Source: a virus
Taxonomy: Duplodnaviria > Caudoviricetes
Length of the DNA: 64,000 nt
Virus record (IMG/VR): IMGVR_UViG_3300035208_002115
Reading direction: 5' to 3' (one strand)
Part shown: one piece after another, positions 19,715-64,000 of the stretch
Layout: every line of letters begins with the position of its first letter
Numbering within the stretch: position 1 is the first letter of the stretch
The notes under the pieces: generated by a model
What the model saw: only the letters and a program-made list of their open reading frames with translations
Databases searched by the model: none
What the model was told of the DNA's origin: nothing
Position numbers and translations under genes: made by a program

Positions 19715-20275
19715 TTATAAGTTTGTTTCTTGTATTAAATTATCACCCTTCGCTAAATAACCACTTCCAGTATACCATGAAACATTATTAATAGTTGCTC
19801 TTGATGTCGTATTATAAGCACCATTCCAGATAACACGAGTTCTAACATCTACTGTGGCATTATAAACAAAATTACTAATAGTAAAAGAAGTATTTGTAGT
19901 TCCAGCAGTCGTTCTCGATGCTATTGTAATCCATGAACCATTATTTATTCTATAATAAACATACGCTGATGATGAACTAATGGTATACAAATATATAGTC
20001 AATGTAACACTCATTGTATTTGGGGAATCGTGGGAACTTCTAAGTATTGATGCATATCTATCCTGTTCCGTAGAATAATTAGTAATAATATATTCACCAC
20101 CATATTCAACCGCACACACATTTTTACTATAAAATTCTGATATATTATGGGGTGCGGTTAATCCGATATCTGTGCTAAGATTAGTTAGACTTGCATCCAT
20201 ATCAGATACAGAACTACGCCAATATTCTGTATTTATAGTACTAATACCAATTTGTCCTGATGCTGGTAATGTCAT
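19715..20275 (-). CDS. Putative tail-fibre tip/adhesin protein
   Basis: N-terminus MTLPASGQIGISTINTE...ISEFYSK resembles small proteins encoded after S74-type fibres; beta-rich C-terminus. Confidence 0.6.
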   Translation of the reverse strand: MTLPASGQIGISTINTEYWRSSVSDMDASLTNLSTDIGLTAPHNISEFYSKNVCAVEYGGEYIITNYSTEQDRYASILRSSHDSPNTMSVTLTIYLYTISSSSAYVYYRINNGSWITIASRTTAGTTNTSFTISNFVYNATVDVRTRVIWNGAYNTTSRATINNVSWYTGSGYLAKGDNLIQETNL

Positions 20276-20290
20276 TTTTAATTATTATTT

Positions 20291-20785
20291 TTAAATATCA
20301 GATATAGTAATTTCTGATGTTGCACAATATGGACTATGTATAGTTAGTTCTTCAAATACTTCATTACCTAGTCCGTCAAGTAATATATCACCTGTTCTAT
20401 GTTCATAAATAACATCACCGTTTTCATCTAATACTATATCACCGTTTTCATCTATTTTTAAAATATCTTGATGATAATAACTATATTTTTTTTCAGTTAA
20501 ACCACTAACAAATATAGACTGTACTTTATTGTGTATAAATGATAAGATATCAGAGCCGTCAGTTGTTCTATTATATGGTAAATCATACACTGGTCTGAAC
20601 ATAAATCCATTAATATCTAAAGAATTTTTTTCTAAATCTTCAATATACTTTGATTTTGATGCATATACAACACCTATAACTCGTATATTATCTGATTTAA
20701 GATTCATATTATATAGCAATCTAAGGTATATTTGTTCTAAAGTAATACCTTTATAATTCATTTGTTTTGTTATTATTAACCCCAT
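20291..20785 (-). CDS. Fibre-associated hypothetical protein
   Basis: Position in fibre operon; DENGD duplication. Confidence 0.65.
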   Translation of the reverse strand: MGLIITKQMNYKGITLEQIYLRLLYNMNLKSDNIRVIGVVYASKSKYIEDLEKNSLDINGFMFRPVYDLPYNRTTDGSDILSFIHNKVQSIFVSGLTEKKYSYYHQDILKIDENGDIVLDENGDVIYEHRTGDILLDGLGNEVFEELTIHSPYCATSEITISDI

Positions 20786-20787
20786 AT

Positions 20788-22638
20788 TTATTTTTTATTT
20801 TTTAAAATATCTATTTCTTCTTTCAATTCTTTTATACTTTTTATCAAAAATGGTATAATTTGTTCATAATTAACAGTTTTATACATTTCATCTTCAGGTT
20901 TTCCCAACAAATTATGTTCTTTAACTATTTCTGGTAAAACTTTTTCAACATCTTGTGCTATTAAACCATAAACAGTTCCTATTGATGATTTCTTAGGGTC
21001 TTTCCATGTAAAAGATACTGGATTTAATTGGTCAATAATTGATAAACCACTGTCAATATTTTTAACATTTTCTTTTAATCTATTATCTGAAGGAACAGTA
21101 CTTGAATATGCAATAATATCACTTTCAGCGTGGAATACCCCTGCACTTGTAAATCTAAAATAATCAGTACTGGATGCAAAAGTTATACCTATATATCCAG
21201 ATGCTGCAAATAAACCATATCCAGTATAACTGGCAAATGAAAAAGATGGTGCTGATGAAGAACCATTAGCCCCTATAAATTTAGTGCTATATGTATTCGA
21301 AAATAATCTTGTACTACTACCCAATGCATATGTATTTGTGCTTTCTGGTGTAATAGTACCGCCTAATGATATTGCATCTAAAGTAGATGTGCCATTTACT
21401 GTTAAGCCAGCAAATGTTGGTGAACTTGATGTTAAAACCGCTTGGTTTAAATAAGTCGCAAATTGATTACCATCCCATAAATCAGCGTCCAGACCAGAAC
21501 TGCTACCATCATTAGCTTCTGTCCATATTTTGTACCAAGAACTTGCTGATGGTGAAGCACCACCACTTATAGTTCTCGTATACAAATACCCAGCATTTGT
21601 GTAATCAGAAATTATCTGTGTACTATAATTATATGTTGATGTGTTAGAAGTATGTGCCATTGTTAAACACCAAAACCAGTTAGCATTGGGTGTCCAAGCA
21701 GCCCCATTAACTTCCCAAAACCCAGATTTATATTGAGGTAATTCTAATAAGTTTTGAGTAGCATTTGCAGTATTACTACCACTACCATTACTACCATATA
21801 TAAATTTAGATGGTGCAACTGATAAGTTATTTATAGAAGTTGATAATGAACTATCGGCTGAACTTACAGTTGAATTAGTTGTAGAAATAGCCGTTGATAA
21901 TGATGTGTCTGCACTGCTTCTTGTTGAGTTTGCAGTAGAAATAGCCGTTGATAGTGATGTATCGACAGAGCCTCTTGTTGAAATTTCACTTGATAAAGCT
22001 GTTGATAGTGAGGTTACACCAGTGACATTGATATTAGCGATAGCAGTACTTAGTGATGTATCACCAGTATCGACATAATTTCTATGAACAATATCATTAC
22101 TACCTGTTATAGCATAAGTAGAATTATATGTCATTTTACCATAAACCGTTCCACCAGATATATTTAAGTAGTAGCCATCTGCGTTCAAGGTTGTCTGATT
22201 TTTCCAAGTACCACCAGTATACACTAATATGTCACCTGCTGATAATGATGTTATCGTGACATCTGTTAATCCAGACAAATAACCACCACTATTAACATTA
22301 ATTGCAGTTGCTAAAGATGAATCTGCCGAACTTCTTGTCGAGTTTGCAGTGGAAATGGCTGTTGATAAAGATGTGTCTGCACCACTCCTTGTTGAGTTTG
22401 CAGTAGATATAGCTGTTGAGAGTGATGTATCAGAAGATGACCTTACTGATTCCTCAGTTGATATTGTAGTTGACAATGTTAATCCAACATAAGATACAAC
22501 CGCACCCTCAGTAGTTAATGCTGTACTATATGTACCAGACCCCTGTGTATCTATTTCACCTTCAAGTCTTATTAAGTCAATCGTTGGGGAAGTATATGTA
22601 TCACCTGATAATTGTATGCTATTGGTTATTAAACCCAT
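20788..22638 (-). CDS. Tail fibre protein with SLST repeats and C-terminal peptidase S74 intramolecular chaperone
   Basis: SDNRLKENV...GLIAQDVE...VNYEQIIPFLIKSIKEL; GLDADLWDG; DTSLSTAIS repeats. Confidence 0.88.
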   Translation of the reverse strand: MGLITNSIQLSGDTYTSPTIDLIRLEGEIDTQGSGTYSTALTTEGAVVSYVGLTLSTTISTEESVRSSSDTSLSTAISTANSTRSGADTSLSTAISTANSTRSSADSSLATAINVNSGGYLSGLTDVTITSLSAGDILVYTGGTWKNQTTLNADGYYLNISGGTVYGKMTYNSTYAITGSNDIVHRNYVDTGDTSLSTAIANINVTGVTSLSTALSSEISTRGSVDTSLSTAISTANSTRSSADTSLSTAISTTNSTVSSADSSLSTSINNLSVAPSKFIYGSNGSGSNTANATQNLLELPQYKSGFWEVNGAAWTPNANWFWCLTMAHTSNTSTYNYSTQIISDYTNAGYLYTRTISGGASPSASSWYKIWTEANDGSSSGLDADLWDGNQFATYLNQAVLTSSSPTFAGLTVNGTSTLDAISLGGTITPESTNTYALGSSTRLFSNTYSTKFIGANGSSSAPSFSFASYTGYGLFAASGYIGITFASSTDYFRFTSAGVFHAESDIIAYSSTVPSDNRLKENVKNIDSGLSIIDQLNPVSFTWKDPKKSSIGTVYGLIAQDVEKVLPEIVKEHNLLGKPEDEMYKTVNYEQIIPFLIKSIKELKEEIDILKNKK

Positions 22639-22659
22639 TTTACATTATTTAATTTTTAG

Positions 22660-22669
22660 TATATATTAA
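22660..22669 (-). promoter_or_regulatory. TTAATATATA putative late promoter
   Basis: 21 nt upstream of fibre start 22638. Confidence 0.55.
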
Positions 22670-22682
22670 AATATAAATTTTG

Positions 22683-23834
22683 TTAATCTACATCTCCATC
22701 GGAATAAAGTCTAATTATACCACCACTGGAATTCCCATTATAGTGATTATATGCACCAAGAATTATTATTTTATTATCACTTTGTATCGACATACCAGTG
22801 GTTTGACCATCAAATCCACTTCCAACATTAAATGTACTATCATATGTACCATCATTATTTAGCCTTGCTATATTATTAATAGGTGTTACATCATAATATG
22901 ATAAAAATCCAGATATAATATATTTGTCGTCATTTTGTTTTACAATATTCCACGCAGTACCATCAAAACTATAACCACTATTAAAACTACTATCAATACT
23001 ACCATCACTGTTTAATCTTTTAATATAATAATTATTATAAATCACCACAATTTTATCATCATTTTGAACCACCATATCTAAAGCTCCATATGTAGAACCT
23101 GTATAAAATGAAGTATCAAAAGTACCATTTGTGTTTAGTCGGGCTAATCCATAACAAGTATATCCACTGTATGTGGAAAATGTGCCACCAACTAATATTT
23201 TACCTGTTGATTGTAGTCCGATTGAAAATACTGTACCATCAAACCCAGTTCCAATAGTAAAACCACTATCGAGACTACCGTCTGTATTTAATCTTACAAA
23301 TCTATTTCGTGTAGTACCACTATATGAGGTAAATTCTCCACCAACTAATATTTTATTATCTGTTTGTAGTTTTATTTCTTCTACTATTGGAAAAGAACCC
23401 CCTGAAAAACCACTATCAATAGTAAAACCACTATCAATACTACCATTTGAATTTAATCTAATTATTCTGTTTCGAGTAGTACCACTATATGAGGTAAATT
23501 CTCCACCAACTAATATCTTACCATCACTTTGAATTTCTAACGCATATGCTGATGGATATGTACCACCTATACCACTACCTATTACAAATGTATCATCTAT
23601 ACCACCATTTGAATTCAATCTTATAATACCATTATAGGTGACACCACTATATTGTGTAAATCCACCAGAAACTATTATTTTATTGTCAGTTTGTAACATA
23701 ACTTTATACGGTGAACCAGTAAATCCATCACCTGAGAAAAATGTGTGGTCTTTTATTTGGATGTATTTTGATAATATTCTTTTATTACTACCACTTAATA
23801 ATCTATTATTATGACTTAATAATATATTACCCAT
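22683..23834 (-). CDS. Delta-60-repeat beta-propeller protein (putative virion adhesin)
   Basis: About 7 repeats of LQxDxKILVGGxF...RLNxxGxxDxxF; near-identical DNA copies 165 nt apart. Confidence 0.85.
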   Translation of the reverse strand: MGNILLSHNNRLLSGSNKRILSKYIQIKDHTFFSGDGFTGSPYKVMLQTDNKIIVSGGFTQYSGVTYNGIIRLNSNGGIDDTFVIGSGIGGTYPSAYALEIQSDGKILVGGEFTSYSGTTRNRIIRLNSNGSIDSGFTIDSGFSGGSFPIVEEIKLQTDNKILVGGEFTSYSGTTRNRFVRLNTDGSLDSGFTIGTGFDGTVFSIGLQSTGKILVGGTFSTYSGYTCYGLARLNTNGTFDTSFYTGSTYGALDMVVQNDDKIVVIYNNYYIKRLNSDGSIDSSFNSGYSFDGTAWNIVKQNDDKYIISGFLSYYDVTPINNIARLNNDGTYDSTFNVGSGFDGQTTGMSIQSDNKIIILGAYNHYNGNSSGGIIRLYSDGDVD

Positions 23835-26193: not shown

Positions 26194-28464
26194 TTAATAC
26201 GTTATAATATAATTTATGTATCTTTTAGCGTTATTAGTTGAACTAATTTTTGCATTTTCCATCCAATATATTTTCTCTTTTTGATTCCAAGGGGTATTAG
26301 ACCCAGAGCCTGTATAATCCAGACCATTTGATAAGAAATTGACCTGTGCTTCAGTTAAGTCCCACGCATTACCACCATATGTACCCAAACTACCAAGTTG
26401 TTCTGTTGTACCCGATACAGTGTCACCTATACCTGAAATATTAATAGAAAAATTAACATAAGTGAAATATTTTTTATTAACAAACAAATAATCTATAAAG
26501 GCATTAGAACCAGTCACACCAGTATTACCATTTATATAAAAATTGCTAATACCACTATATAAAGTGACACCCGACAAAGTTCCTTGTATATTACAATTAT
26601 CTACTCTAAAATCGAAAGCTCTGTTTATTAAATTAAAATCCGTATTAATATTCGATGATATTTCTGAATTTGAAGCAATTAAAGTATAAACATTATAATG
26701 TTTTAATGCACCTGATAAGCCAGTATTATCTAAAAATAAATTTGTTGTACCACTAATAATCCATGATGTAGTATCACCAGATAAATTTGGGTTGTTCCTT
26801 ATATCTAAGGATGTAGTAACCCCTGTCCCACCGTACCATGAAGAAATATCACAATTGAGAGAACAATTGCGAATTGCGAAACTCTGAATTTTATGAGCTG
26901 GAAAATTTCCCATATCACTTGATATGGGTGTATATGCTAAATCTAAAGCTTGCATATTTTTATTTATAATGAAATTATCAATATTACCCGTCATACCACT
27001 TAAATAACCTAATGTTAAATAAATTAAATTATTTGTATTGAATACACCTTCATCAAAATCTATATAAATATCATTCATACTTAAATAAAAGTATATTAGA
27101 GATGTTGGTAAAACCGTACCTGTAATATTACCATATAAATTATTATTATATAACTGCAAATTAGTTATTGCTGAATTAAAAGTTAAACCAGATATATAAC
27201 CAGTGATATTTAAATTCCCATAAAGAAATAGTGAGGTGGTAGCCGATGGTATTGTAAAGTCATGTATATTACCTGTTAATTTATTGCTTGATAAATTGAT
27301 GGAGAAACTATTTGGTAATGTTATATTATTAATGTCATCTATTAAATTACCATTATTTGTTAATGAAAAGTATGTAACACCAGTTGGAAATGTGATTCCA
27401 GTCACTGATGTTAAAGAGGTCATATTATTAATATTGAATGAATTTAGATTTGTATTTGAATAATTAAGTGGCACTCGTGTAACTTGATATAAACCTGATA
27501 TTTGGATATCTTTTAATGTATCTGGTAAGACCCAATTAGATAAATCACCACTTATTATACCATTTGATGAATTAGAATCATGTATTAATATTGATGTACA
27601 TTTTGTATCACTAAAATCCCAGTTTGTAAGGTCTCCTGTTATATAATAACCACTTATAAATGTAAAAAGAGTTAACCCAGTACTAAATATCCAGTTTGTC
27701 ACATCACCAGTTATTAGATTGGAAGTAATTGGTTTGTTATAATAGAAATAATTCAATTTTGATACATCAATTGTAGATAAATTACCTGTTACCAAACTAC
27801 TTCCATTCAAAAAAAACGATTCAAGATTTACATTATTAAATAAGTTGTTTATGTTACAGTTCAAAGTATTAACATTATTGAGTGATATTTTTCTTAAATT
27901 GCTAAATGGTATATTAGATACATTACCTGTAACTGGACAAGAATTCAGCGATAAATCTTCTAAATTTACTATATTGTTTATAGTATTTATATTCCCAGTT
28001 ATTGTACTATCATATATGTGAAAATATTTTAATCTACTTGGAAATGTTTTATAACTTATATTATTACTAAATGAACTATGTTGGAATTCTAATGTTTCCA
28101 AGTTCGGGAATTGATTCATAAAATCAAACAAATCACCAGTATCGTAATTACTATCTGATGTTGTTTTAAATGTTATTACAGAATTTAAATTACCAAATGT
28201 GTAAACTTTTTTTGAACTGCTTTCACTGGTAGGTGATATCAATTGGTCAAAGTTTGTAACATTTGATGTATAAACTATTTTCACCATCCCAGTAGGTTTT
28301 TCAAAATAAAATTTAAATGGATTAGTAGCTGTAACACCACTTAGCGTGATTGTATACCTGTAATAATATGATTGGGTTGAAGCCAAATAAGAATTTATTA
28401 CAGTTGATTTAAGTATATACCCATCCTTATTTTTTAATATAGTATCATCCTTATTCTTAATCAT
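26194..28464 (-). CDS. Leucine-rich-repeat protein (putative virion/adhesin)
   Basis: Repeated LxxLxLxxxx[IV]TG[ND][IL]xx units; within fibre operon. Confidence 0.75.
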   Translation of the reverse strand: MIKNKDDTILKNKDGYILKSTVINSYLASTQSYYYRYTITLSGVTATNPFKFYFEKPTGMVKIVYTSNVTNFDQLISPTSESSSKKVYTFGNLNSVITFKTTSDSNYDTGDLFDFMNQFPNLETLEFQHSSFSNNISYKTFPSRLKYFHIYDSTITGNINTINNIVNLEDLSLNSCPVTGNVSNIPFSNLRKISLNNVNTLNCNINNLFNNVNLESFFLNGSSLVTGNLSTIDVSKLNYFYYNKPITSNLITGDVTNWIFSTGLTLFTFISGYYITGDLTNWDFSDTKCTSILIHDSNSSNGIISGDLSNWVLPDTLKDIQISGLYQVTRVPLNYSNTNLNSFNINNMTSLTSVTGITFPTGVTYFSLTNNGNLIDDINNITLPNSFSINLSSNKLTGNIHDFTIPSATTSLFLYGNLNITGYISGLTFNSAITNLQLYNNNLYGNITGTVLPTSLIYFYLSMNDIYIDFDEGVFNTNNLIYLTLGYLSGMTGNIDNFIINKNMQALDLAYTPISSDMGNFPAHKIQSFAIRNCSLNCDISSWYGGTGVTTSLDIRNNPNLSGDTTSWIISGTTNLFLDNTGLSGALKHYNVYTLIASNSEISSNINTDFNLINRAFDFRVDNCNIQGTLSGVTLYSGISNFYINGNTGVTGSNAFIDYLFVNKKYFTYVNFSINISGIGDTVSGTTEQLGSLGTYGGNAWDLTEAQVNFLSNGLDYTGSGSNTPWNQKEKIYWMENAKISSTNNAKRYINYIITY

Positions 28465-28480: not shown

Positions 28481-31400
28481 TTAAAAGATATATCCCTCTA
28501 CTAATAAATGCGCTGATAATGGATTTACATTCGTAGATGCCGAGGACACCCTAAAATATACAACACTACCAGATGACTGTGTTACTGCATTTTGAGTTAC
28601 TTCTAACTCATATGTTTCATTCGTTAACACATCGTTAATAACCAATGAAGGTGATAAATTATTATAAGAAGAATTATTATTACCAACACTTATAGTAAAT
28701 GCTGTTGGTGAAGCGTCATTCAATATTATTAATTTAAATCTATTAAACAATACTCTTTTACCTGTTGGAATAGTTAATATAGCAGTATTACCAATAGATT
28801 TTAGATTAATATTTTGAACGAATATAAAATTTTGCAAAGTTGTAAATACATCAAAATCCGTTTTAAATACAGTATGAGTTGGGTAAGCATATTTTTGACC
28901 AATATAAGTTATTCCACTTTCGGTACTAACCCATTCATCAACTACATCTATTTCTTGTACAATGTTATTTGTCGAACCAATCCATGTTTTACCACTTGTT
29001 AATGGTCTATTGTATGATTCTTTAACCCAATAATTACCAGTTTTATTATATCTAAGAAATACATCTTCAAGACTTAAATTAACATTTATAGCAATACTTC
29101 CACTATCGTAGAAATTATCAAAAGTATAGTTAAATGTTCCATCATTTTGTGGTTCGGGTCTATACCACTGGCTATCTGCTAAACCACTTGGAACTGACGA
29201 ATTTTTAGTAATATTACCCAAAAATCCCCCACCAGCACCAGTTAACCCAGAGTTAACCCATTGCGAACCATTATAAACTAAATATTGTCCACCTGACAAA
29301 GATGATAACGTAACATCAGTTAAACTATCAAGATTAGTAGAAATAGATATACCAGAATTAACCCATTGTGAACCATTATAAGTCAATATTTGAGTTGAAG
29401 ACGGTGTTGTTATTGTAACGTCTGATAATCCATCTAAATTCAAGTTTGTTGATAAAACACCACTACCATTAATAGACAATCCAGTGCCAACCATTATAGC
29501 ACCTAATGAAACTGCACTGGCCATCGGTAAGTCACCTGGGCTGATGGTTGTTGAAGCGTTTTTATATGTGATATTAGCCCACTGAACAGTTAAATTAACA
29601 TTTGTCCACGTTGCAGAATTAATATAAATTGTTGTATTTACAGTGTTTGATAATCTCATATTTACCGTAACCGATACTGTTTCACCAGAGGTCACTGAAA
29701 TAGTTTTATATGGTGTTATTTCATTTCCAGTCACAGTTGTACCTAAATTAACTTCGGCTGTTGTAGTACCAGTATTAGTGATATATACCATACCAAGTGT
29801 CTGTCCTGATACTAATATACCTAAATCTCTGTTTGAAGTGACACCAGTGTAAGAATATAGGTTAGCTAATGTAGAATTTGTAATATAATTGTTATCAATA
29901 ATAAATTGGCCATTACCGTTTATTAAAATACCATCCGAACCCGTAATATAAGACGCAGAATTAAAAATGTGTGTGTGCGAATTAGTTGACACAGAATTTG
30001 TAGAACCAGTATTTATATCAGATGGTGTACCAAGAGTTACTGAACCAGATGATGTAATAGTTGAAAAATTCATACCATTACCTGCTGAAATAGAAGTCAC
30101 TGAACCAGTAGACGCAGTACCATATGTTATTTGACCTGTTGATGTGTTATAAAATAAAACATTTGATTGGCTCGATGATGGTAATCCAGATATGTAAGTA
30201 TTACCTGTAACAGCCAACGAACCATTCACATTTAAACGTGAATTAACAAAAGTCAAATTAGAGCTTGTGTATATTTGTTTTGTATCGTTATTCCAAAATG
30301 TGATACCACTTGAAATAGGTGAGTCTTCTCTTGTAGCAACAGCTTGTAACGAACCTATTTCACCAACCCTGAATGTATCATAAGTTTCATTGAATATAAA
30401 TTGGTAATTTGTTAATGAACCTCTTTCAACTTCGATACCAGCTATAATCGAAGTGACACCAGAGCCAGTTTCACCGCTATTTATCAAAATCAAATTATCA
30501 GAAACCTGCATATTTTGGGTGTTAATAGTAACAGTAGTACCAGAAACATATAAATTACCCAGAATATTTAGATTACCATTTAATAACATTTGACTCCCGT
30601 CAAAAGTTAAATTAGATTCAGCAACCATCCCTTTTTGTGTACCATCAGATGTTAGTAACCTATCATCACCATAATTTGAAATGACCGTTCCACCAGAAGC
30701 ACTAACTAAACTGTCAATATAATATTTATTTACAATATCATTAGTATTAGTGAATGACAACCCAGTAGCTGAATACCTCATAATATCACCGATAGATATT
30801 TTAGCACCAGAATCAACAGTTGTGTAAATATAAACTGAACCTAATTGTTTATCCTCTATGTATGTAGCACCTGGTATAGAATCCACGTATGAACCACTGT
30901 TTATTTTAACATTACCAGCTATTACCCCACCCACTCGTGATAGTCCACCTTCAAGTATTAAATCACCGCCTGAATTATCGCTCACACCACCTGATATAAT
31001 TGTAGTACCACCTGATAAAACACCATCACCAGCTCTGAATACAGCAGCACCACCAATACTATTACCGCCACCAGCAATAATATTAATCCATCCCCCATCA
31101 CCAGTTGTATTCTCAGCTCTCATCATAATACTATCACCATGATTAGCTGTCCTTGGCGTGTCATCCCCAAATAATGATATAAATGGGCCAATTAATAATG
31201 CTCCATAATTTTCAACATCAAAATTATAATATGATTGCAATGCTTGTATACTTCTACTATCTGGTGTATCATAAAATTTTATTTTACTTGAACCACTTAA
31301 ACTAACAATAGAATTATTAAATGATAACGTATTTGTAGTTGAATTAAATGTCATACCAGTGTTGGCATTTATGCCATTTGCCGTACCATCAGATGTTAAT

Positions 31401-36987: not shown

Positions 36988-36997
36988 TTTTATTTAA

Positions 36998-42642: not shown

Positions 42643-42652
42643 CCTATATTTA

Positions 42653-43255: not shown

Positions 43256-43260
43256 AATTA

Positions 43261-44707: not shown

Positions 44708-44712
44708 TCAAA

Positions 44713-46972: not shown

Positions 46973-46978
46973 AATCTT

Positions 46979-49141: not shown

Positions 49142-49142
49142 T

Positions 49143-50791: not shown

Positions 50792-50846
50792 TATTGAACT
50801 TAAATTTTTATTATTTATTCACACAACCGAGTTCTGTGATAAAATA

Positions 50847-50872
50847 TATAGTTAATATGATAATTTTTGTTT
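50847..50872 (-). promoter_or_regulatory. AAAC-N18-TATA putative promoter
   Basis: Conserved spacing; upstream of 50791. Confidence 0.5.
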
Positions 50873-50891
50873 AATAATCGAATAAAATTTT

Positions 50892-51545: not shown

Positions 51546-51561
51546 ATTAAAAAATTCTTTT

Positions 51562-53693: not shown

Positions 53694-54304
53694 TTTTGTT
53701 TTTGTTTATATTTATCTTCTGCAATTTTAATGAGGTCATCATGTATAATTTCATGTTTTAAAGTTTTTATATCTTCAATTGGAACTAATACAATAACATC
53801 TATTCTACCACGTCTTCGATACCATTTATATATTCTTTCTAAAGCTGTTTTATTTTTAATTATATCATATTCACTGTCACTAAAACCATAAAAATCATTT
53901 ATATCCACATCATTATCTTTAATCATATCTTCTACAAGTTTTTTAACATCAGCTCTACCAACCATTAAAAAACCATCTATTATTTCAAATGCAATCTTAT
54001 CAGATTTTCCATTAATCCAGCCTATATTACCATTCACATTATAAAATTCAATCCATGTATAATCAAATGATATCCCACCCTTTCTTGTTATACCTTTTAT
54101 CGATTTTACTTCAATTTTTTCAATTCTTTTACTTCCATTTATTAGTTGCCCAATTCTAAAATCAAAATGGTCTTCTATATCTTCCTTAATAGATGATTTA
54201 TTTATTTTTAAGTCGGTTTTAAACAACTTAAACAACCTAAAAAATCTCTTTTGTACAATAAATCCATTTTTTTTAGATTTTGGATATTTTTTAAATGTAT
54301 TCAT
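53660..54304 (-). CDS. PD-(D/E)xK nuclease-like phage protein (paralog of 53220-53693)
   Basis: HFDF...IEVK...WIEF...GWINGKSD.IAFE...RRGR.D. Confidence 0.65.
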   Translation of the reverse strand: MNTFKKYPKSKKNGFIVQKRFFRLFKLFKTDLKINKSSIKEDIEDHFDFRIGQLINGSKRIEKIEVKSIKGITRKGGISFDYTWIEFYNVNGNIGWINGKSDKIAFEIIDGFLMVGRADVKKLVEDMIKDNDVDINDFYGFSDSEYDIIKNKTALERIYKWYRRRGRIDVIVLVPIEDIKTLKHEIIHDDLIKIAEDKYKQKQKCLKQKNELVN

Positions 54305-54981
54305 AATAATCTTTTTTGATAACCTAAGAATTCTTCCAATTCCCAGTTAATGTTTTCATTTATAAATTTCAATGATTCATCATCAATTTGTTTTTCAAAT
54401 TTTGGAATAGAACTATAAGAGGTTCTTCTATTAGTTTTGTATATTAAATATTCTTCTGATATAGTGTTCATCACCTCAATTAAATCTGAACATATATCTT
54501 CATATCTAATATATTTAATATTGGGAACAATGTTTTTTAAATTAATAAAATATTGATTCTTTAAATTTCTCAATTCAATTACATTGGATATGTTTAATAA
54601 TGTATGAGGATTCCTTTCAAAAAACATTTCTTTTTTTTGATATAATCCGTTTTCTTTATTTAAGATTTTATCATGCATACTTACCCAAGGCAATTTAATA
54701 AATTCATTTAAAGATTTATTCATTAATGAAATGTGAGCATGATGTGGGTTTTCTTGCATAGACTTAACCCAGTCATACGGATTCCTACTTAATACAATAA
54801 AAAGATATTCATTTAAATTAGCTGTATCAATACTATAAATGTTCGGGAAAAAATGTTTCCAACCTAATGTAAACACATACTGATTAATGACTAAATATTG
54901 TTTAATCGATTCTTCGAACCATTTTGAACCAGTGTGTCGCTCGGCATAAAGTTGAATATATTTTATTTTTTGCTTATTCAT
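54301..54981 (-). CDS. Sulfotransferase-like protein
   Basis: ERHTGSKW (5'-PSB-like), GWKH, RNPYDWVKS (3'-PB-like), IRYED. Confidence 0.7.
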   Translation of the reverse strand: MNKQKIKYIQLYAERHTGSKWFEESIKQYLVINQYVFTLGWKHFFPNIYSIDTANLNEYLFIVLSRNPYDWVKSMQENPHHAHISLMNKSLNEFIKLPWVSMHDKILNKENGLYQKKEMFFERNPHTLLNISNVIELRNLKNQYFINLKNIVPNIKYIRYEDICSDLIEVMNTISEEYLIYKTNRRTSYSSIPKFEKQIDDESLKFINENINWELEEFLGYQKRLL

Positions 54982-55790
54982 GTTTTAAAGTAAAAATTAT
55001 TATAGACTTTATAATCTGACACACCTCTGTCAAAAATAGCTTGATTTTTATAAAATAACTCTAAAGTGTGTTTTTTTTCATCTTCGGGTGTTAATGCATT
55101 AAAATGATAAACACTATCGTGCCACTGGTGAATAACATATGGTGAATTTATAATTATTATATTTAAATCCAATAATCTGATTCTTCTTAATATTTCATTA
55201 TCATCGAACGCAACCCCATCTTTATATTCTTCATCAAATCCACCAATTTTATATAAATTATTGGTAGTTATTGCAGCAGCAAAGTGATACCCTTTTGGAT
55301 TTATTACAGAATGATTATACCAACCATTAGAACATGCATGTGGTGGCTGACAATTATTATACACTAATTTGTTATAATTATTAACATTATATTCTTTTTC
55401 TCCAATAGAATAACATGCATATGGTATATAATTTTCATCAGTTAAATTTATATCAACATCGGATAATACATCACCCATGTGATAACATTCTGGATTCTGG
55501 AAAAGAATTTTATTATATTGCACATGATTAAATCCTATATTATATGGGACACATGAACAAGTCCATTTCTTCTGTTCTTTTTTAATATTAAAAATACGAA
55601 ACTTCAGTTTATTAAATAAAGATGGTAAATCGTCTATTGAATGTTGTTCTAAACTATTATCATTAATGATAACAATTTCTAATTTCGACCTATCATATTT
55701 AGTTTCGTTAATAGAATTTAAAGTTCTAATTAATTGCTCTCTCCTGTTATGATATGCCATAACTATTGATATACCATCAATATTTTTCAT
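54978..55790 (-). CDS. GT2/GT7C-type glycosyltransferase
   Basis: AYHNR, QNPECYH, GGFDE...DDNE, HQWH. Confidence 0.85.
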   Translation of the reverse strand: MKNIDGISIVMAYHNRREQLIRTLNSINETKYDRSKLEIVIINDNSLEQHSIDDLPSLFNKLKFRIFNIKKEQKKWTCSCVPYNIGFNHVQYNKILFQNPECYHMGDVLSDVDINLTDENYIPYACYSIGEKEYNVNNYNKLVYNNCQPPHACSNGWYNHSVINPKGYHFAAAITTNNLYKIGGFDEEYKDGVAFDDNEILRRIRLLDLNIIIINSPYVIHQWHDSVYHFNALTPEDEKKHTLELFYKNQAIFDRGVSDYKVYNNFYFKT

Positions 55791-55792: not shown

Positions 55793-56917
55793 CTAATATT
55801 TTTTTATTAGTGTTTTTAACAAATTATTATATATGCTTATATTTATTTCATTATCAGCATCATAAGAGAAAATTGTTTTTTTATTTCTTTCATTATATTC
55901 TTCCAGATTCTTGTCGTGATTTTCCAAAATCCATATTAATTTATCAGTAGCATTTTTACCATTAAACCCCTCATAATAATATCCAACATTTTTACACATG
56001 TGGGCGTTATGTAATATAGCGTGTCCAAGGTAAGCCACATCCAAATAAAAATAATTCAAAGGATTATCCCATTGGTGACTGACGACTATATCAGCATAAT
56101 CGGCTAAAAATTCAACGGTTGAAAATCTATCCTCGAATGTTGCCTTATGGTCTTTAACAATACTTAAATGATTCATGTATTCCACAAAAACTTTATGTTT
56201 TCGAATATTAAATGTATTAGTAACAAATAATTTCTCTATTAATTCTGGTCTTTGTTCATATACATCATCAACAATCAAAATCGGATACATAGCATACTTC
56301 AAAACATCTTGATTAGGTTCAAGTATTGCTATGGATTTAGGTGTGTTTTTTGGTGTGTAACGAGGGTTATTTTTTAATGATGATGCTAATTCATCAATTA
56401 AAAAAGAATCCCATATAAACGGAACAGATTTTACATTTTTATTTTTATGAAATCTATTGAAATAATATTTATTTTGTTCAAAAACCTGTGGTACACACCA
56501 TATTTCATCGTAATCTGGATTACACCATATTATAGAACTTCCAACATCTTGATTAAATAAAACATTTTCCATTCTAATAACATATTCATTACCACATTTG
56601 TACGAAACTATTTTTGTTTTTCTTTTCTTTAAGTATGTAGTCATAGATTGGTCAATCTGTCCACCGAGAGATATTAATATATCAATATCATCTTTTACAT
56701 CCGAAATATGATGTACTGGAAATTCTTTTGTATCAAATGCGAATTGAGTAAATTCTTTACTTGTTGTATTAGCGAAAAATACGTTATATTTCCCAATGTT
56801 TTTAAGAAGTTTAGCTAAATATAAACCATTTAGTTTGATGCCATTTATCCATAAACCTTCATTATTACTTCTAACACCTAATGTGATAGCAATATTCTTC
56901 ATTGTTGCAGTTGCCAT
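55793..56917 (-). CDS. DUF2827-family protein (putative GT-B glycosyltransferase)
   Basis: W.NGI, YKCGNEY, DEIW.VPQ, PFIW, EPN, DIVVSHQWDNPLNY, HN...GYYY. Confidence 0.75.
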   Translation of the reverse strand: MATATMKNIAITLGVRSNNEGLWINGIKLNGLYLAKLLKNIGKYNVFFANTTSKEFTQFAFDTKEFPVHHISDVKDDIDILISLGGQIDQSMTTYLKKRKTKIVSYKCGNEYVIRMENVLFNQDVGSSIIWCNPDYDEIWCVPQVFEQNKYYFNRFHKNKNVKSVPFIWDSFLIDELASSLKNNPRYTPKNTPKSIAILEPNQDVLKYAMYPILIVDDVYEQRPELIEKLFVTNTFNIRKHKVFVEYMNHLSIVKDHKATFEDRFSTVEFLADYADIVVSHQWDNPLNYFYLDVAYLGHAILHNAHMCKNVGYYYEGFNGKNATDKLIWILENHDKNLEEYNERNKKTIFSYDADNEINISIYNNLLKTLIKKY

Positions 56918-58562: not shown

Positions 58563-58625
58563 AAATAAAAAACTATATTTTTAGATATATATCAAAATGA
58601 ATTGGGTTTCTTCTAATATTTAAAC

Positions 58626-58659
58626 AAAAAAAGAGTGTCCTTTCGAACACTCTTTTTTT
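58626..58659 (-). terminator. Intrinsic terminator after fibre gene 58677-60617
   Basis: Minus strand GAGTGTTC-GAAA-GGACACTC followed by T7. Confidence 0.8.
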
Positions 58660-58676
58660 ATTGACCTAACTTAATA

Positions 58677-60617
58677 TTATGTAGTTACTACATATTTAAT
58701 TTTAACGTCATCAGTTGTTTCGATTGCGAATCCAGCTTCTACACCATCAAAATATAATGGTGTACCAGCAGATGTTGGAGTAACACCGTTTGTATGGAAT
58801 ACAGCAGGTGAACCTTGTGCATATTCGAATGTATATTCGATACCGTTTAAAAATACTATAACAGTAGATTCATCAATTACACCCCCAGTTACACCATGTG
58901 CAAAAGCAGTACCAATATTTACAGCAGTTGTAGAACCACTAATTGCTGGTGATAATAACTGTTCAAAATAACTTGGAGCTTGAATATTACTGATTGCAGT
59001 TTCTAAAGATGTGTCAGCAGTACCTCTTGTTGATGCTTCAGTTGAAACAGCAGTTGAAATACCAGTTGCTAATGAAGTGTCAGCACTGCCTCTTGTTGAT
59101 GCCTCAGTTGAAATAGCTGTTGATAATGATGTGTCAGCAGTACCTCTTGTTGATGCTTCAGTTGAAACAGCAGTTGAAATACCAGTTGCTAATGAAGTGT
59201 CAGCACTGCCTCTTGAAGAAATTTCACCTGATAAAGCGGTTGATAATGAATCTACGCCAGCAGTTGAACCAGATGTCAAAGAAGCTATTTGTGTACTTAA
59301 CGATGTGTCGGCTGAACTTCTTATTGAAGCTTCACCAGAAATAGCAGTTGTTATTGATGTGTCAGCAGACCCTCTTGTTGATGCTTCAGTTGAAATAGCT
59401 GTTGATAATGATGTGTCAGCAGACCCTCTTGTAGATGTTTCAGATGATAAGGCAGTTGATAACGATGTATCTGATGAGTTATTAGCTGAAATAGCAGTTG
59501 ATAATGACGTGTCAGCACTACCTCTTGTTGATGTTTCAGTTGAAACAGCAGTTGATAATGATGTATCAGCAGTACCTCTTGTTGATGTTTCAGTTGAAAT
59601 AGCTGTTGATAATGAAGTGTCAGCAGTACCTCTTGTTGATGCTTCGGTTGAAACAGCAGTACTTAATGAAGTAGCAGCAGATGTATTACCAGAAATAGCA
59701 GTTGCTAATGATGTATCAGCACTGCCTCTTGTAGATGTTTCGGTTGAAACAGCAGTACTTAATGAAGTAGTAGCAGATGCGTTACCAGAAATAGCTGTTG
59801 ATAATGATGTGTCAGCAGTACCTCTTGTTGATGCTTCAGTTGAAATAGCTGTTGATAATGATGTATCTGATGAATTATTTGATGATATTTCAGATGATAA
59901 CGCAGTTGACAATGATGTTACATTACCCTGATTATTTGATATTTGAGTGATAACAGATGAAGCAACCCTTACACCAGAAGAAGTTTTACTTAGAGTACCA
60001 CCATCTAATTCAAGTGAGAAAACAGTACCAGTAAGGTCTAATCCTTCACCGTCTGTACTATATGTACCAGGCGAAGAAATCTTTACCCATCCTTGTGTAT
60101 CAACGTTAACTACAATTTCTGTTTCTGGTACAGCATCAGTAGTAGCTAAAACCCAACCAGTTTTTCCATTAACTGTTCCATTTTCAACAAATACAAAGTC
60201 ACCAGTAGAAACTTCGTTAGTTGGAGTACCATCAAAATCAAATGGTCTTATCCAAGCACCAGCCTTAACCTGCCATACACCATTAGATGGGTTTTGGTCA
60301 GTTGCACCTGCACCACCTTGATTTGTTAAAAGTACTCTATCATCTACTGATAATAAAAAATCATCAATAGTTGTTGTACCAGTTAATACTGTTGTACCAG
60401 TAGCCACAGCATGAACTGGTAAATGGGGTACTAATCCACCTGCAACTGCATCAACGTAAGCTTTGTTAACAGCTTGATTGTCAGCCGTTGGTGAACCAGA
60501 TATTATCACATTATATGTTGACATATCCAAATCACCTTGAACTACAACATTACCAGTTGCACCTTTTATAGTAACTGTTTGTTGTGCGATTTGTTTTCCT
60601 TTTAATAATTGAGCCAT
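58677..60617 (-). CDS. Fibre/decoration-like structural protein with ~300-aa SLST-repeat stalk
   Basis: MAQLLKGKQI, AVNKAYVD, DRVLL..Q...NGVW.V..GAW.R..D, repeat tract, C-terminal LNGIEY domain. Confidence 0.82.
   Translation of the reverse strand: MAQLLKGKQIAQQTVTIKGATGNVVVQGDLDMSTYNVIISGSPTADNQAVNKAYVDAVAGGLVPHLPVHAVATGTTVLTGTTTIDDFLLSVDDRVLLTNQGGAGATDQNPSNGVWQVKAGAWIRPFDFDGTPTNEVSTGDFVFVENGTVNGKTGWVLATTDAVPETEIVVNVDTQGWVKISSPGTYSTDGEGLDLTGTVFSLELDGGTLSKTSSGVRVASSVITQISNNQGNVTSLSTALSSEISSNNSSDTSLSTAISTEASTRGTADTSLSTAISGNASATTSLSTAVSTETSTRGSADTSLATAISGNTSAATSLSTAVSTEASTRGTADTSLSTAISTETSTRGTADTSLSTAVSTETSTRGSADTSLSTAISANNSSDTSLSTALSSETSTRGSADTSLSTAISTEASTRGSADTSITTAISGEASIRSSADTSLSTQIASLTSGSTAGVDSLSTALSGEISSRGSADTSLATGISTAVSTEASTRGTADTSLSTAISTEASTRGSADTSLATGISTAVSTEASTRGTADTSLETAISNIQAPSYFEQLLSPAISGSTTAVNIGTAFAHGVTGGVIDESTVIVFLNGIEYTFEYAQGSPAVFHTNGVTPTSAGTPLYFDGVEAGFAIETTDDVKIKYVVTT
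58990..59922 (-). repeat. In-frame tandem repeats (42/54/66-nt units) encoding SLST stalk
   Basis: Repeating GATGTGTCAGCAGTACCTCTTGTTGATGCTTCAGTTGAAA on the plus strand. Confidence 0.9.
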
Positions 60618-61005: not shown

Positions 61006-62127
61006 TTAGGATTTAATTATATTAAATATACACTTTTCATATTCTTCAATAATGTTTTCATTATCAATAGAGTAAATATTTAATATGTTATCACATTGGT
61101 CATTGTATTTATTGACAAAACTTTGATGTTTTGTTATGGCCTGTAATAATTTATTACTTCCCTCAGATAAATTAAATTCTGGATAATAATATAAAGTGTT
61201 TATTTTAGGAGAATTATGTACTAACGGGAATTTAGTATATAAACAATCAAAATATGTATTACTTAAATCATTTTCAAATTGATTAGATACAACTATATCT
61301 GTATAATTACTCAGAATAAATGGTGTTGTATATCTTTCTTCAAATGTTATTTTATTATCCTGTTTTAATTTTAATGTGTTAACAAATGATAAAAATCTTG
61401 GATTTTTATAAAATTTATAAGAATTTAATACTCTGACCTTATCTATAAGTTCGGGTCTTAAATTGTATAACTTCTCAACCAATAATATAGAATGAAGTGA
61501 ATTTTTTAAAATAGTATTATTTTCTTCGAATATGGTTATATCGACACCCCCTCTATTTTTCCTATTATATTTGACATCACTATATTGTAGTTTGACATCA
61601 TTATCAATCATACTTTCTTCATATTTCTTAATGAAAAAATTATCCCATATATAAGGCAAGAATTTAACTTCCTTTTTATAAAGATTTTCTAAATAATATT
61701 TATTTAATTTTTCATTATTAGAGAACGACCATATTTCGTCATAATCATCGTATGCTATAATACTTTTTTTATTCTCAAAAAGAATGTCTTCCGAATCAGA
61801 AATAAAAGCATTTTCAATTTTAAATAATACAATTTTTGTTTTACATAATTTTAATACGGTAAAATACTCATTAGATAATTTTTTACCCATTTCTATGAAC
61901 AAATCAAAATGTATATCATTTACTGGGTCTACAAACTCAACATTTTTAAATAAATCTGGAATGTCAGTATCCAAAGTATCAATTGGCACACCAAAATTTA
62001 CAATATATGTATTTACATCTGGTATTTTTTTTAATAGAAAATAGAGAAAAAAAATTTTTTGAATTTCACCATCTGACCATATATTAAATTTATTATCATT
62101 GACTCCGAAAGAAATACCGATATTCAT
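61006..62127 (-). CDS. DUF2827-family protein (divergent third copy)
   Basis: WSDGEIQ, DEIW, PYIW, FEEN, DIVVSNQFENDLSN, PLVHNS, YYYP. Confidence 0.7.
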   Translation of the reverse strand: MNIGISFGVNDNKFNIWSDGEIQKIFFLYFLLKKIPDVNTYIVNFGVPIDTLDTDIPDLFKNVEFVDPVNDIHFDLFIEMGKKLSNEYFTVLKLCKTKIVLFKIENAFISDSEDILFENKKSIIAYDDYDEIWSFSNNEKLNKYYLENLYKKEVKFLPYIWDNFFIKKYEESMIDNDVKLQYSDVKYNRKNRGGVDITIFEENNTILKNSLHSILLVEKLYNLRPELIDKVRVLNSYKFYKNPRFLSFVNTLKLKQDNKITFEERYTTPFILSNYTDIVVSNQFENDLSNTYFDCLYTKFPLVHNSPKINTLYYYPEFNLSEGSNKLLQAITKHQSFVNKYNDQCDNILNIYSIDNENIIEEYEKCIFNIIKS

Positions 62128-62584: not shown

Positions 62585-62616
62585 TTTTTAATTATGTTAA
62601 GTGTAAGCTTTAAATG

Positions 62617-62646
62617 AAAAAAGAGGGAAATAATCCCTCTTTTTTT
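62617..62646. terminator. Bidirectional intrinsic terminator
   Basis: AAAAAAGAGGGA-aataa-TCCCTCTTTTTT between convergent genes. Confidence 0.8.
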
Positions 62647-62669
62647 ATGTGTATTGAGCTTAACTTGGT

Positions 62670-64000
62670 CTAAACCAATGAGATATATGAGTATTTAATT
62701 ACAATTAAATCAATACCCGATTCTATTCCAAACCCACCTTCCGTTGCATCATAAAATAAGGTTGAACCTTGGACGGCAGGGAAAGCATTAAAATAAAATG
62801 GCATGTTAGTTTGGCTTGAAGTTGACATACTTATTAAATATTCAACACCGTTAATACTTGCTTGTACTGGAGTTATTGGTTCGTATGTTAAAACTAAACC
62901 AGTTGAGCCAGTTGTACCAGTAACTATTGTTGCTGAATATGTTGATTGAATCCAGATTTGTGAACCTCTCAACTCATCATTAACTATTTTTAATGTATAG
63001 TTATCAACATTTACGTTTAATTCCTGATTGCCATTATCATTATATGTTAAACCAGAACCAGCAGTCTGAGCAGTAACACCACTTAAATTGTTAATTACAG
63101 TTTCTAATGATGTATCACCAGATAATCTATTTGATATTTCAGTTGAAATAGCAGTAGATAAAGAAGTATCATCATAAGTATTACCTGTTATTACATTTGA
63201 TAATGCAGTAGATAACGAAGTAGTTTCACTACTTAATACCGTAATAGTCGAACTATTTGTTGATATTACAGTTTCTAAAGATGTTAATCCTGTTACAGCG
63301 TTCCCAATTGATGTTTCTAATGATGTTGTATAACCAGTTGTAATTTGTAAAGTGTTAGTCGAAATTTCGATAGTCACACCATCAACACTAACGTTTAATT
63401 CCTGATTACCATTATCATTATAAGTTAAACCAGAACCAGCAGTCTGAGCAGTAACACCACTTAGATTGTTAATTACTGTTTCTAACGATGTATCACCACC
63501 AGCTCTTGTTGATGATTCAGTTGAAATTGCAGTAGACAAAGAAGTATCATCATAGGTATTACCTGTAATGAAATTTGATAATTCTGTTTCTAATGATGTT
63601 AAACCTGTTATAGAATTGCTTATAGCAGTTGTTAATGAAGAAACACCAGTACTAATTTCAGTTTCTAAAGATGAAATACTACTTGTTAAGGATTCAGTTG
63701 TAGCACTCAACGCAAAAATATCTGTAACCACTGGTGTTGCAAGTCTTAAACCATCAACACTCTGATATAAACCAGAATTATAATTATGAAAAGTAGTACC
63801 ACTAAATTCAGTTTCATTTAATTCAACAGAAAAAATATCACCATTTAATTTAAGTGCATTTCCATCAGCAGTATAAGCTTTACTTGTAGCAAAAATTGTC
63901 CAAACCTGACTATCAACACCAACAGTAATATAACCTTGTGAATTTAATGAACTTGAATTACTAATAACCCAAGATGTCGCAACATTAGTTTCACCCGATG
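62670..64000 (-). CDS. Fibre/decoration-like protein, paralog of 58677-60617; 5' end beyond the window
   Basis: Frame stays open past the track's GTG at 63731 to the edge (SGETNVATSWVIS...YTADGNALKLNGDIFSVEL); SLST/SLET repeats; INGVEY...GFGIE...IKY C-terminus. Confidence 0.8.
   Translation of the reverse strand, partial: SGETNVATSWVISNSSSLNSQGYITVGVDSQVWTIFATSKAYTADGNALKLNGDIFSVELNETEFSGTTFHNYNSGLYQSVDGLRLATPVVTDIFALSATTESLTSSISSLETEISTGVSSLTTAISNSITGLTSLETELSNFITGNTYDDTSLSTAISTESSTRAGGDTSLETVINNLSGVTAQTAGSGLTYNDNGNQELNVSVDGVTIEISTNTLQITTGYTTSLETSIGNAVTGLTSLETVISTNSSTITVLSSETTSLSTALSNVITGNTYDDTSLSTAISTEISNRLSGDTSLETVINNLSGVTAQTAGSGLTYNDNGNQELNVNVDNYTLKIVNDELRGSQIWIQSTYSATIVTGTTGSTGLVLTYEPITPVQASINGVEYLISMSTSSQTNMPFYFNAFPAVQGSTLFYDATEGGFGIESGIDLIVIKYSYISLV
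63013..63570. repeat. Internal duplication with 378-nt (126-aa) period
   Basis: ITGNTYDDTSLSTAISTE...INNLSGVTAQTAGSGLTYNDNGNQELNV twice; copies begin at 63013 and 63391. Confidence 0.85.

Follow-up and report, generated by a model that had tools for sequence, protein, structure and literature searches.

A stretch of 64,000 nucleotides (hereafter the window), which corresponds to bases 253,370-317,369 of the 675,678-bp IMG/VR virus contig IMGVR_UViG_3300035208_002115, carries an island of sugar-related enzyme genes interleaved with five genes that encode predicted fibres rich in serine and threonine. This island is probably a phage-encoded system for cytoplasmic protein O-glycosylation that decorates the trimeric fibres of the phage itself, a reading to which we assign a probability of about 0.65. 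According to it, the DUF2827 proteins would act on the SLST repeats of the fibres, and the other glycosyltransferases (GTs) and the methyltransferases would elaborate the glycan. The link between DUF2827 and the fibres appears to be the supported step, and we infer the remainder. A preliminary description of the window had already suggested that a methylated and sulfated glycan was placed on the fibres in the cytoplasm, with a putative role in shielding or adhesion; the fibre part of this idea has gained comparative support through DUF2827, but the sulfated glycan has not, because the sulfotransferase is only a lead.

DUF2827 proteins and SLST-repeat fibres

From position 64,775 down to 19,715, all substantial open reading frames (ORFs) are on the minus strand, and the 19.7-64 kb part of the window forms a single block where the enzymes lie around and between the fibre genes (Table 1). 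Each of the five fibres carries between 4 and 15 copies of the motif D[TS]SL[ST]T. When the whole genome was scanned, these five proteins adjoining the island were the only ones with at least two copies among 829 ORFs of at least 100 amino acids (aa). Their content of Ser plus Thr is 27-36% overall and reaches 58% per 100-residue stretch, in agreement with the preliminary description, in which five Ser/Thr-rich fibre genes flanked and interleaved with the locus.

A register analysis with 26 exact 18-residue units revealed the repeat SLSTAISTExSTRGSADT, in which nine positions are almost invariably Ser or Thr and hydrophobic side chains recur with a period of 3.6 residues. This periodicity is as expected for an 18/5 (7+11) coiled coil, which suggests that most of the hydroxyls are exposed. 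The repeat spacings in the phage are 18 and 14, and inspection of sequence and hydropathy showed that the N-termini of the fibres are not signal-peptide-like. Concerning the position of the fibres in the virion, the N-terminal domain of the 646-aa fibre resembles the PHROG families "head decoration" and "virion structural protein". An AlphaFold2 (AF2) model of this domain, built for the question of head versus tail, presented a predicted local distance difference test score (pLDDT) of 40 and was unusable.

The DUF2827 profile (PF10933) matched three proteins in the whole genome, all of them full-length and inside the island, with 252-394 bits against a gathering cut-off of 25. The three copies listed in the preliminary description are hence the only ones of this phage. 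The AF2 model of DUF2827, obtained from an alignment of 31 homologues, showed a pLDDT of 90.5, a predicted template-modelling (TM) score of 0.88 and a GT-B architecture with two Rossmann domains. Its best Foldseek matches were the retaining GT4 enzymes BshA and MshA (E 6e-11, TM 0.60-0.63), and on the basis of this model DUF2827 is a GT-B enzyme with a GT4-like fold.

In bacteria, DUF2827 is found next to proteins of the same kind. Patterns derived from the phage had matched nothing, and a search with a bacterial alignment provided a set of 80 DUF2827 loci with 10-kb flanks. An ORF with 3-140 SL[ST]T motifs and up to 52% Ser plus Thr was located within 10 kb of DUF2827 in 48 of them, belonging to Burkholderia, Paraburkholderia, Trinickia, Caballeronia, Polaromonas, Luteimonas, Methylobacterium, Sphingomonas and Caulobacteraceae. 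The C-termini of these SLST proteins carry YadA head, stalk and anchor domains (6/6 tested), and their repeat units, such as SLSTGLSSTNSxVx and SLSTSTSTGLSSAxSSIT, are spaced by 7, 11, 14 and 18 residues. The typical gene order is an SLST trimeric autotransporter (TAA), an OmpA-family lipoprotein and three DUF2827 genes (L045:3-11131, L078:2724-11116, L096:3196-11140); in Trinickia, the latter are followed by a gene similar to peptidyl-prolyl isomerase/SurA and by a tetratricopeptide-repeat protein. The association of DUF2827 with trimeric autotransporters has been independently reported (bioRxiv 10.64898/2026.01.22.700529).

The three bacterial genes constitute three separate, well-supported paralogue classes in the phylogenetic tree. 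The phage copies branch outside these classes, amid a deeper and more diverse viral assemblage (a quick LG+G4 tree with long branches), and therefore the phage triad does not seem to be a recent bacterial import. One-to-one orthology between the phage copies and the bacterial classes was considered and was not supported by the tree.

The scan of IMG/VR provided 27 viral DUF2827 loci. In two close relatives of the phage, G001 (640 kb, complete, with terminal repeats) and G002 (422 kb), the layout is the same as here and SLST matches appear only on both sides of the enzyme block. In the unrelated G006 (132 kb), whose DUF2827 is 26% identical, all SLST matches are about 1.5 kb from paired DUF2827 genes. 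Neither DUF2827 nor a P0001-like fibre was detected in four huge phages of Al-Shayeb and in Tenacibaculum phage PTm1; the queries do match in the genomes where a match is expected. Regarding the co-occurrence check proposed in the preliminary description, DUF2827 adjoins SLST fibres in the present phage, G001, G002 and G006, and five related phages lack both; the GT2-rich block is associated by position only. A tblastn search of 50,697 GenBank phage records with DUF2827 gave no match.

More generally, in 19 of the 27 viral loci, DUF2827 has within 3 kb a gene for a protein that is highly repetitive and at least 200 aa long. In the present genome, the only one to which this base rate refers, four of 307 large ORFs are repetitive in the same sense, corresponding to 4.9% of the sequence within 3 kb. 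These neighbours present coiled-coil repeats (of the xSxRxxADxSLxxxxS kind) or are collagen-like Gly-X-Y fibres, and the neighbour tallies include Collagen, GT2, sulfotransferase and GT8/GT34 genes. One of the loci (L015:8448-14948) belongs to a bona fide giant virus: on this contig, DUF2827 is flanked by a SADxSL-repeat protein and, on the opposite side at a distance of 2 kb, by a PBCV-1-like gene for the major capsid protein (E 1e-91). The distribution of DUF2827 thus extends from bacteria and tailed phages to Nucleocytoviricota.

Furthermore, homologues of the J-domain-like protein of the island (E 3e-23 to 4e-9) are found 0.6-1.3 kb from DUF2827 in L007, L008/L009/L027, L010, L011 and L014/L016/L021, that is, in five to six other viral lineages, unrelated ones among them. 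This recurrence suggests that Hsp70 is involved in handling the fibre chains. The L011 homologue has a long C-terminal extension bearing a GHPRTGTG motif.

A broader interpretation, tentative and in our opinion somewhat below even odds, is that DUF2827 and the SLST-type coiled coil form a portable enzyme-substrate pair, used in bacterial trimeric adhesins, phage fibres and giant-virus fibrils, with the viral J-domain co-chaperone as a third partner that holds the chains open. Here, the pair would have become a 27-kb assembly line clothing tail and head fibres in a methylated glycan that includes 6-deoxy-L-N-acetylhexosamines (6-deoxy-L-HexNAc). It would be the bacterial-virus counterpart of the glycan "fur" of Mimivirus and the largest phage protein-glycosylation system known.

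Enzymes of the island and the proposed glycan

Pfam assigned the GT2 family to five ORFs with six domains (one ORF is double), two of them with Glyco_transf_7C, and revealed one ORF each with Galactosyl_T (GT31-like), Exostosin (GT47-like), Gly_transf_sug (GT32-like) and Rhamno_transf. Adding these nine classical GTs to the three DUF2827 proteins, the total is 12 ORFs and 13 domains. The preliminary description had counted about ten GTs; its GT2, GT7C, GT31-, GT32- and GT47-like members are recognized by Pfam, but its GT8-like member (43261-44037) has no significant Pfam or NCBIfam match. The same is true of the sulfotransferase that it named (54301-54981), for which the best hit was Sulfotransfer_4 with E=0.07. 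The neighbours of these two proteins in a language-model comparison, mostly from giant viruses, belong to GT8-bearing (0.99) and sulfotransferase-bearing (0.97) clusters, respectively, and both identities are treated here as language-model leads only.

Five methyltransferase domains were also recovered with Pfam, the number given previously: one has the architecture of a sugar C-methyltransferase, two are FkbM domains and the remaining two are of class I, of which one is fused to DUF2827. This fusion is also present in G002 (P0021).

Between 42653 and 55790, the order of the run is an FkbM methyltransferase, the GT8-like lead, GT31-like, a class I methyltransferase, GT47-like, GT2, a second FkbM methyltransferase and a 269-aa protein without assignment, followed by GT2, GT32-like, GT2/7C, Rhamno_transf, the double GT2/7C, two paralogous unassigned ORFs, the sulfotransferase-like lead and GT2. 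The two unassigned paralogues (window 53220-54304; 157 and 214 aa) overlap, match each other (phmmer 3e-19) and show weak PD-(D/E)XK/YraN-like hints.

The nucleotide-sugar trio of the preliminary description is confirmed by profiles of the Polysacc_synt_2, RmlD-like and WecB types. The dehydratase scores best as PseB, and its PseB and FnlA scores are both under the equivalog cut-offs; its matches in the Protein Data Bank (PDB) are FlaA1 of H. pylori (2gn4, 8e-78), CapE and Megavirus Mg534 (4tqg, 6e-53). The products of the trio are most likely UDP-N-acetyl-L-rhamnosamine (UDP-L-RhaNAc) and UDP-N-acetyl-L-quinovosamine (UDP-L-QuiNAc), because the trio resembles Mg534-536 and WbvB/WbvR/WbvD, a pathway that we take as the template for the assignment; the exact stereochemistry is presumed by analogy. 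A pseudaminic-acid pathway was rejected because aminotransferase, PseG/H/I/F, NeuB-like and other Pse or Leg genes are absent from the locus, which does contain a reductase of the RmlD-like type and an epimerase of the WecB type. The trio is split by 3.2 kb of small genes (window 36637-39687), an insert that is probably unrelated to it and holds a gene similar to MazG/dATP-dGTP pyrophosphohydrolase (38074-38589; PF04447 2e-7).

Table 1. Features of the fibre and enzyme region (window coordinates).
Feature	Position	Strand	Evidence
SLST-repeat tail fibre, 616 aa	20788..22638	-	C-terminal Peptidase_S74 intramolecular chaperone domain, E 2.5e-17; 19 PHROG tail-fibre families, best 6e-29; seven D[TS]SL[ST]T; TAATATATA at -30
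DUF5122 beta-propeller protein, 383 aa, among fibres	22683..23834	-	PF17164, E 1.3e-77, 7 blades
SLST-repeat fibre, 768 aa	23837..26143	-	36% Ser+Thr, up to 58% per 100 aa; 18-residue period; TAATATATA at -31
Leucine-rich-repeat-like protein, 756 aa, in fibre block	26194..28464	-	Sequence; no Pfam or PHROG match
Giant fibre, 1564 aa, two SLST-repeat segments	28481..33175	-	Paralogue of the other SLST fibres (phmmer 5e-37 to 2e-50); TAATATATA at -36
J-domain-like protein, 221 aa	33552..34217	-	HPDK motif; DnaJ E 0.004
RmlD-like 4-reductase, 277 aa, candidate UDP-6-deoxy-L-HexNAc pathway	34733..35566	-	RmlD_sub_bind 5.7e-19; TIGR01214 4e-19, below equivalog cut-off
Inverting UDP-GlcNAc 4,6-dehydratase/5-epimerase (PseB/FnlA/CapE/Mg534 type)	35593..36615	-	Polysacc_synt_2 1.9e-102; PseB 348 bits, FnlA 270 bits
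Non-hydrolysing UDP-HexNAc 2-epimerase, WecB type	39842..40927	-	Epimerase_2 2.4e-85; TIGR00236 250 bits, above cut-off
Nucleoside-diphosphate (NDP)-sugar C-methyltransferase architecture (zinc-binding, S-adenosylmethionine methyltransferase and C-terminal domains)	41398..42690	-	Methyltransf_13, Methyltransf_23, Methyltransf_14
Tightly packed enzyme run	42653..55790	-	Pfam and language-model leads; overlaps or gaps <=100 nt
DUF2827 copy 1, 374 aa, predicted GT-B glycosyltransferase, proposed fibre O-glycosyltransferase	55793..56917	-	PF10933 353.9 bits; AF2 pLDDT 90.5
DUF2827 copy 2 fused to class I methyltransferase, 543 aa	56931..58562	-	PF10933 394.0 bits; methyltransferase domains at residues 393-496
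Hairpin terminator, directly after 646-aa fibre gene	58623..58662	-	dG -21.4 kcal/mol, z -7.5; 0/200 shuffles fold as well
SLST-repeat fibre, 646 aa, between DUF2827 genes	58677..60617	-	13 motifs, 34% Ser+Thr; N-terminal domain: phrog_2647 "head decoration" 2e-18, phrog_2824 4e-11
Small ORF, 88 aa	60735..61001	-	Between DUF2827 copy 3 and 646-aa fibre
DUF2827 copy 3, 373 aa, most divergent	61006..62127	-	PF10933 251.6 bits; long branch in tree
SLST-repeat fibre, 701 aa in full	62670..64775 (crosses window end at 64000)	-	N-terminal domain common to 646-aa fibre

In the proposed mechanism, the dehydratase, the reductase and the 2-epimerase would first turn host UDP-N-acetylglucosamine (UDP-GlcNAc) into UDP-L-RhaNAc and/or UDP-L-QuiNAc, and the C-methyltransferase may divert the 4-keto intermediate. 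The three DUF2827 paralogues would then put the first sugars on the Ser/Thr residues of the 18-residue repeat. In a third step, the J-domain protein may bring host Hsp70, the fibre chains being kept accessible or helped to fold. The nine GT-A/GT47-type transferases would subsequently lengthen the glycan chains, and these would be capped by O-methyltransferases and possibly also by a sulfotransferase. The outcome would be glycan-coated tail and possibly head fibres, functionally like the fibrils of Mimivirus. As for the DUF5122 beta-propeller protein encoded among the fibres, it is possible that it acts as a receptor-binding head.

The GTs could also be thought to glycosylate hydroxymethylated bases of the phage DNA against restriction, an option that we consider highly improbable. 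The T4 alpha-glucosyltransferase does appear among the GT-B fold matches (rank 28, E 1e-8), but this match is generic to GT-B and the GT4 enzymes match better. The MazG-like gene within the locus would fit such a role, as would the Tet_JBP and thymidylate-synthase-like genes found less than 6 kb from DUF2827 in a few other viral loci; however, neither a hydroxymethylase nor a Tet gene was found among the scanned ORFs of the locus, the only part of the genome searched for them. Moreover, bacterial DUF2827 adjoins adhesins and not DNA-modification genes, and the known DNA glycans are far too simple to account for 13 GTs, five methyltransferases and a pathway for 6-deoxy-HexNAc.

Transcription signals, export machinery and alternative acceptors

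Of 766 genes, 103 have the sequence TAATATATA about 30 nt upstream, compared with the 6.9 expected if it were uniformly distributed, and half of all its genomic occurrences are placed in this way. It is a strong promoter-like element of the phage and stands in front of the terminase gene and four of the five SLST fibre genes (e.g., window 22639-22682, 26144-26193 and 33176-33551), and scans for sigma-70-type promoters remained at shuffle level. The enzyme genes from 58,562 to 41,398 are joined by overlaps or by gaps of at most 100 nt, and this run looks like one operon.

Several observations weigh against fibre glycosylation by the whole island. TAATATATA is upstream of no gene between 33.2 and 58.6 kb, that is, of none inside the GT block, and the terminator parts one fibre from the enzymes; for these two reasons, co-regulation of fibres and enzymes was examined as an argument and is not supported. 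Target-specific comparative support appears to be confined to the DUF2827 genes, and we infer from position alone, as for the GT2-rich block in general, that the nine non-DUF2827 GTs act on a fibre-linked glycan. It should be noted that fibre genes and accessory genes of phages are often grouped without any functional connection. In addition, the bacterial DUF2827 loci examined contain no further GTs, and a long assembly line is therefore not general to the DUF2827 module. The conserved Ser/Thr residues could be purely structural, and some of the collagen-like fibres adjoining DUF2827 are Ser/Thr-poor (6-9%). Finally, the literature offers neither biochemical nor proteomic support for DUF2827 activity or for glycosylated SLST repeats.

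Part of this evidence would suit a division of functions, in which DUF2827 modifies the fibres and the GT2-rich run and the methyltransferases make a separate product, such as a polysaccharide, either free or bound to the capsid, or sugar chains on other virion proteins, for instance the DUF5122 or leucine-rich-repeat heads; the two would then have nothing but their neighbourhood in common. The bacterial triads without further GTs, the few other GTs shared by most viral DUF2827 loci, and the terminator and promoter-motif difference that part the transcription units are in line with it. Nevertheless, such a division seems quite unlikely, considering that the contiguous run of 58562-41398 starts with DUF2827 genes, that the methyltransferase fused to one DUF2827 is of a kind found in the run, and that other viral DUF2827 loci likewise contain GT32, GT2, GT8/GT34 and sulfotransferase genes.

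Regarding export, the preliminary description had stated that the GTs look soluble and that a priming transferase and a flippase are absent, and both statements agree with the present results. The 19-residue Kyte-Doolittle mean stays below 1.6 in all 39 ORFs of the locus, compared with 356 of 1520 ORFs above 1.6 in this AT-rich genome. No polytopic membrane protein was found in the locus by this hydropathy scan of 39 ORFs, and Wzy and ABC families were not searched by profile. Profiles for the priming phosphoglycosyltransferases (Bac_transf, Glycos_transf_4) and for a Wzx-type flippase (Polysacc_synt) gave no match in the whole genome; the priming profiles match in 10 and 12 of 14 reference genomes, and all three control searches match in 10-13 of 14. 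The phage encodes only two large polytopic membrane proteins: one of 826 aa (G000:C1:523380-525860, about 270 kb past the window start), which has about 17 hydrophobic segments and belongs to no Pfam family, and a BPD_transp_1 permease-like protein with 8 transmembrane (TM) segments at 615066-616277. Membrane proteins elsewhere in the genome were considered as a hidden exporter and rejected, the 8-TM protein being of the ABC-permease type and the 826-aa protein being familyless and 270 kb off.

The earlier conclusion that this is not a cell-surface locus holds only in part: priming transferase and Wzx are missing genome-wide, but the solubility of the GTs is by itself not decisive against a host-surface target, because the GTs that build O-antigen units in undecaprenyl-pyrophosphate-linked assembly are also normally soluble or peripheral. 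The island could thus make an oligosaccharide on host undecaprenyl-phosphate or another acceptor and, through the priming transferase, flippase and ligase of the host, alter lipopolysaccharide, capsule or surface glycoproteins, for instance to block superinfection. A locus without TM segments is compatible with this, and N-acetyl-L-fucosamine (L-FucNAc), L-RhaNAc and L-QuiNAc are typical sugars of O-antigens and capsules. The lack in the GT block of the promoter-like motif of the fibre genes would also be in accordance with it. Likewise, the clusters of NDP-sugar and GT genes in jumbo cyanophages have been read as serving diversified outer-polysaccharide synthesis (PMC7824862). This explanation appears unlikely here, since the phage has neither a priming transferase nor Wzx and the locus holds no membrane protein. 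Furthermore, it gives no reason for the recurrence of SLST or collagen-like fibres beside DUF2827 in bacteria, in phages and on a giant-virus contig, nor for the location of the island exactly between the sole SLST fibre genes in three megaphages. A slow change of the host surface would presumably also be of little gain to a lytic megaphage.

Comparison with known systems and the phage genome

The fibre glycosylation proposed for this island shares with the bacterial DUF2827/TAA arrays (bioRxiv 10.64898/2026.01.22.700529) the same Pfam family, a cytoplasmic GT-B enzyme, three paralogues per locus and an adjoining SLST trimeric fibre with spacings of 14 and 18. By contrast, the candidate substrate of the phage is a virion fibre without signal peptide or YadA anchor, and the phage locus has in addition about ten further GTs, five methyltransferases and a pathway for nucleotide sugars, none of which occurs in the bacterial loci examined. 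The phage copies are not one-to-one orthologues of the bacterial ones, and the activity is putative in both settings.

The gene clusters of Megavirinae (Mimivirus, Megavirus and Moumouvirus), in the portions of PMC10117803 devoted to them, comprise 6-33 genes with nucleotide-sugar pathways, GTs of several families, methyltransferases and sulfate-modifying enzymes for virion-fibril glycans, and the UDP-L-RhaNAc/L-QuiNAc trio Mg534-536 of Megavirus is used for these glycans. The phage island is alike in combining a virus-encoded nucleotide-sugar pathway, which includes the same trio, with several GTs and modifying enzymes, and in the mostly giant-virus language-model neighbours of two unassigned proteins. 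It is, however, an analogue and not a member of this group, predicted from the uncultured metagenomic record of a tailed phage (Terminase_6N, tail-fibre PHROG matches and 40 tRNAs). The proposed acceptors also differ, being coiled-coil SLST fibres in the phage and GMC-oxidoreductase fibrils in Megavirinae, and DUF2827 is not among the cluster components described in those portions of PMC10117803.

In mycobacteriophages, GTs, sometimes together with methyltransferases, modify virion proteins in the cytoplasm, with a proposed shielding role (Freeman et al. 2023, as summarised in PMC12619734). According to that summary, the operons are small and the acceptors lie in the C-terminal tails of the subunits of capsid and tail tube (PMC12619734). 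Here, the fibre stalks with their repeats are the candidate acceptors, the enzymes belong to the DUF2827 family and the locus extends over 27 kb.

A resemblance in logic, and not in ancestry, can be found in the GtfA/GtfB pathways of serine-rich repeat proteins (SRRP) and in the autotransporter heptosyltransferases Aah and TibC, where soluble GTs modify many Ser/Thr residues of repetitive adhesin stalks ahead of their assembly or export; in the case of SRRP, the glycan is then extended stepwise by several more soluble GTs of the locus. Pfam scans detected no GtfA/GtfB, DUF1975, DUF1792 or BAHT family member among the ORFs of the locus.

To our knowledge, virus-made glycan coats are established for amoebal giant viruses and for a few actinophages, and not for huge phages of Gram-negative or Bacteroidota-type hosts. 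Compared with the literature, this would be virus-encoded virion glycosylation in which, within a huge phage, both the enzyme family and the kind of acceptor are new. If this is true, the largest known phages would depend on sugars of their own making for receptor recognition, environmental stability and escape from recognition by hosts or grazers, and it would become questionable to read jumbo-phage GT clusters by default as host-surface remodelling. A function would be found for DUF2827, with relevance also to the SLST adhesins of the Burkholderia type, and the short 18-residue repeat would be a tractable acceptor for a new family of protein O-glycosyltransferases.

Concerning the phage itself, the contig has a G+C content of 27.4%, 40 tRNA genes and no rRNA. 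Its large terminase matches the Terminase_6N profile and is closest to those of the uncultured huge phages LR756501, LR745206, LR756502 and LR756504 (634-735 kb; 40-49% identity), followed by those of Tenacibaculum phage PTm1, Sphingomonas phage PAU and a Flavobacterium phage. The Capsid_NCLDV profile gave no match in this genome, nor did it in the control sequences, and PF05065 did not match a capsid protein in this phage either. Because the terminase relatives are huge tailed phages and no capsid of nucleocytoplasmic large DNA viruses (NCLDV) was found, the record is assigned, from its genes, to a Mahaphage-like megaphage, whose host is probably a member of Bacteroidota. A giant-virus origin of the record was rejected on the same grounds, the nearest terminases being those of the Al-Shayeb huge phages and PTm1.

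Other genes of the region were also noted. An intact soluble hybrid histidine kinase with three PAS domains and a receiver domain is encoded just upstream of the fibre block (window 16574-18841), and two neighbouring radical SAM genes, one of them with a SPASM domain, are located at window 2864-4894. A tRNA with the anticodon UUA is found in the genome at 37754-37827, and a methionyl-tRNA-synthetase-like gene (tRNA-synt_1g, 3.8e-68) lies upstream of the fibre region at L002:15703-17094, equivalent to about 79.7-81.1 kb in window coordinates.

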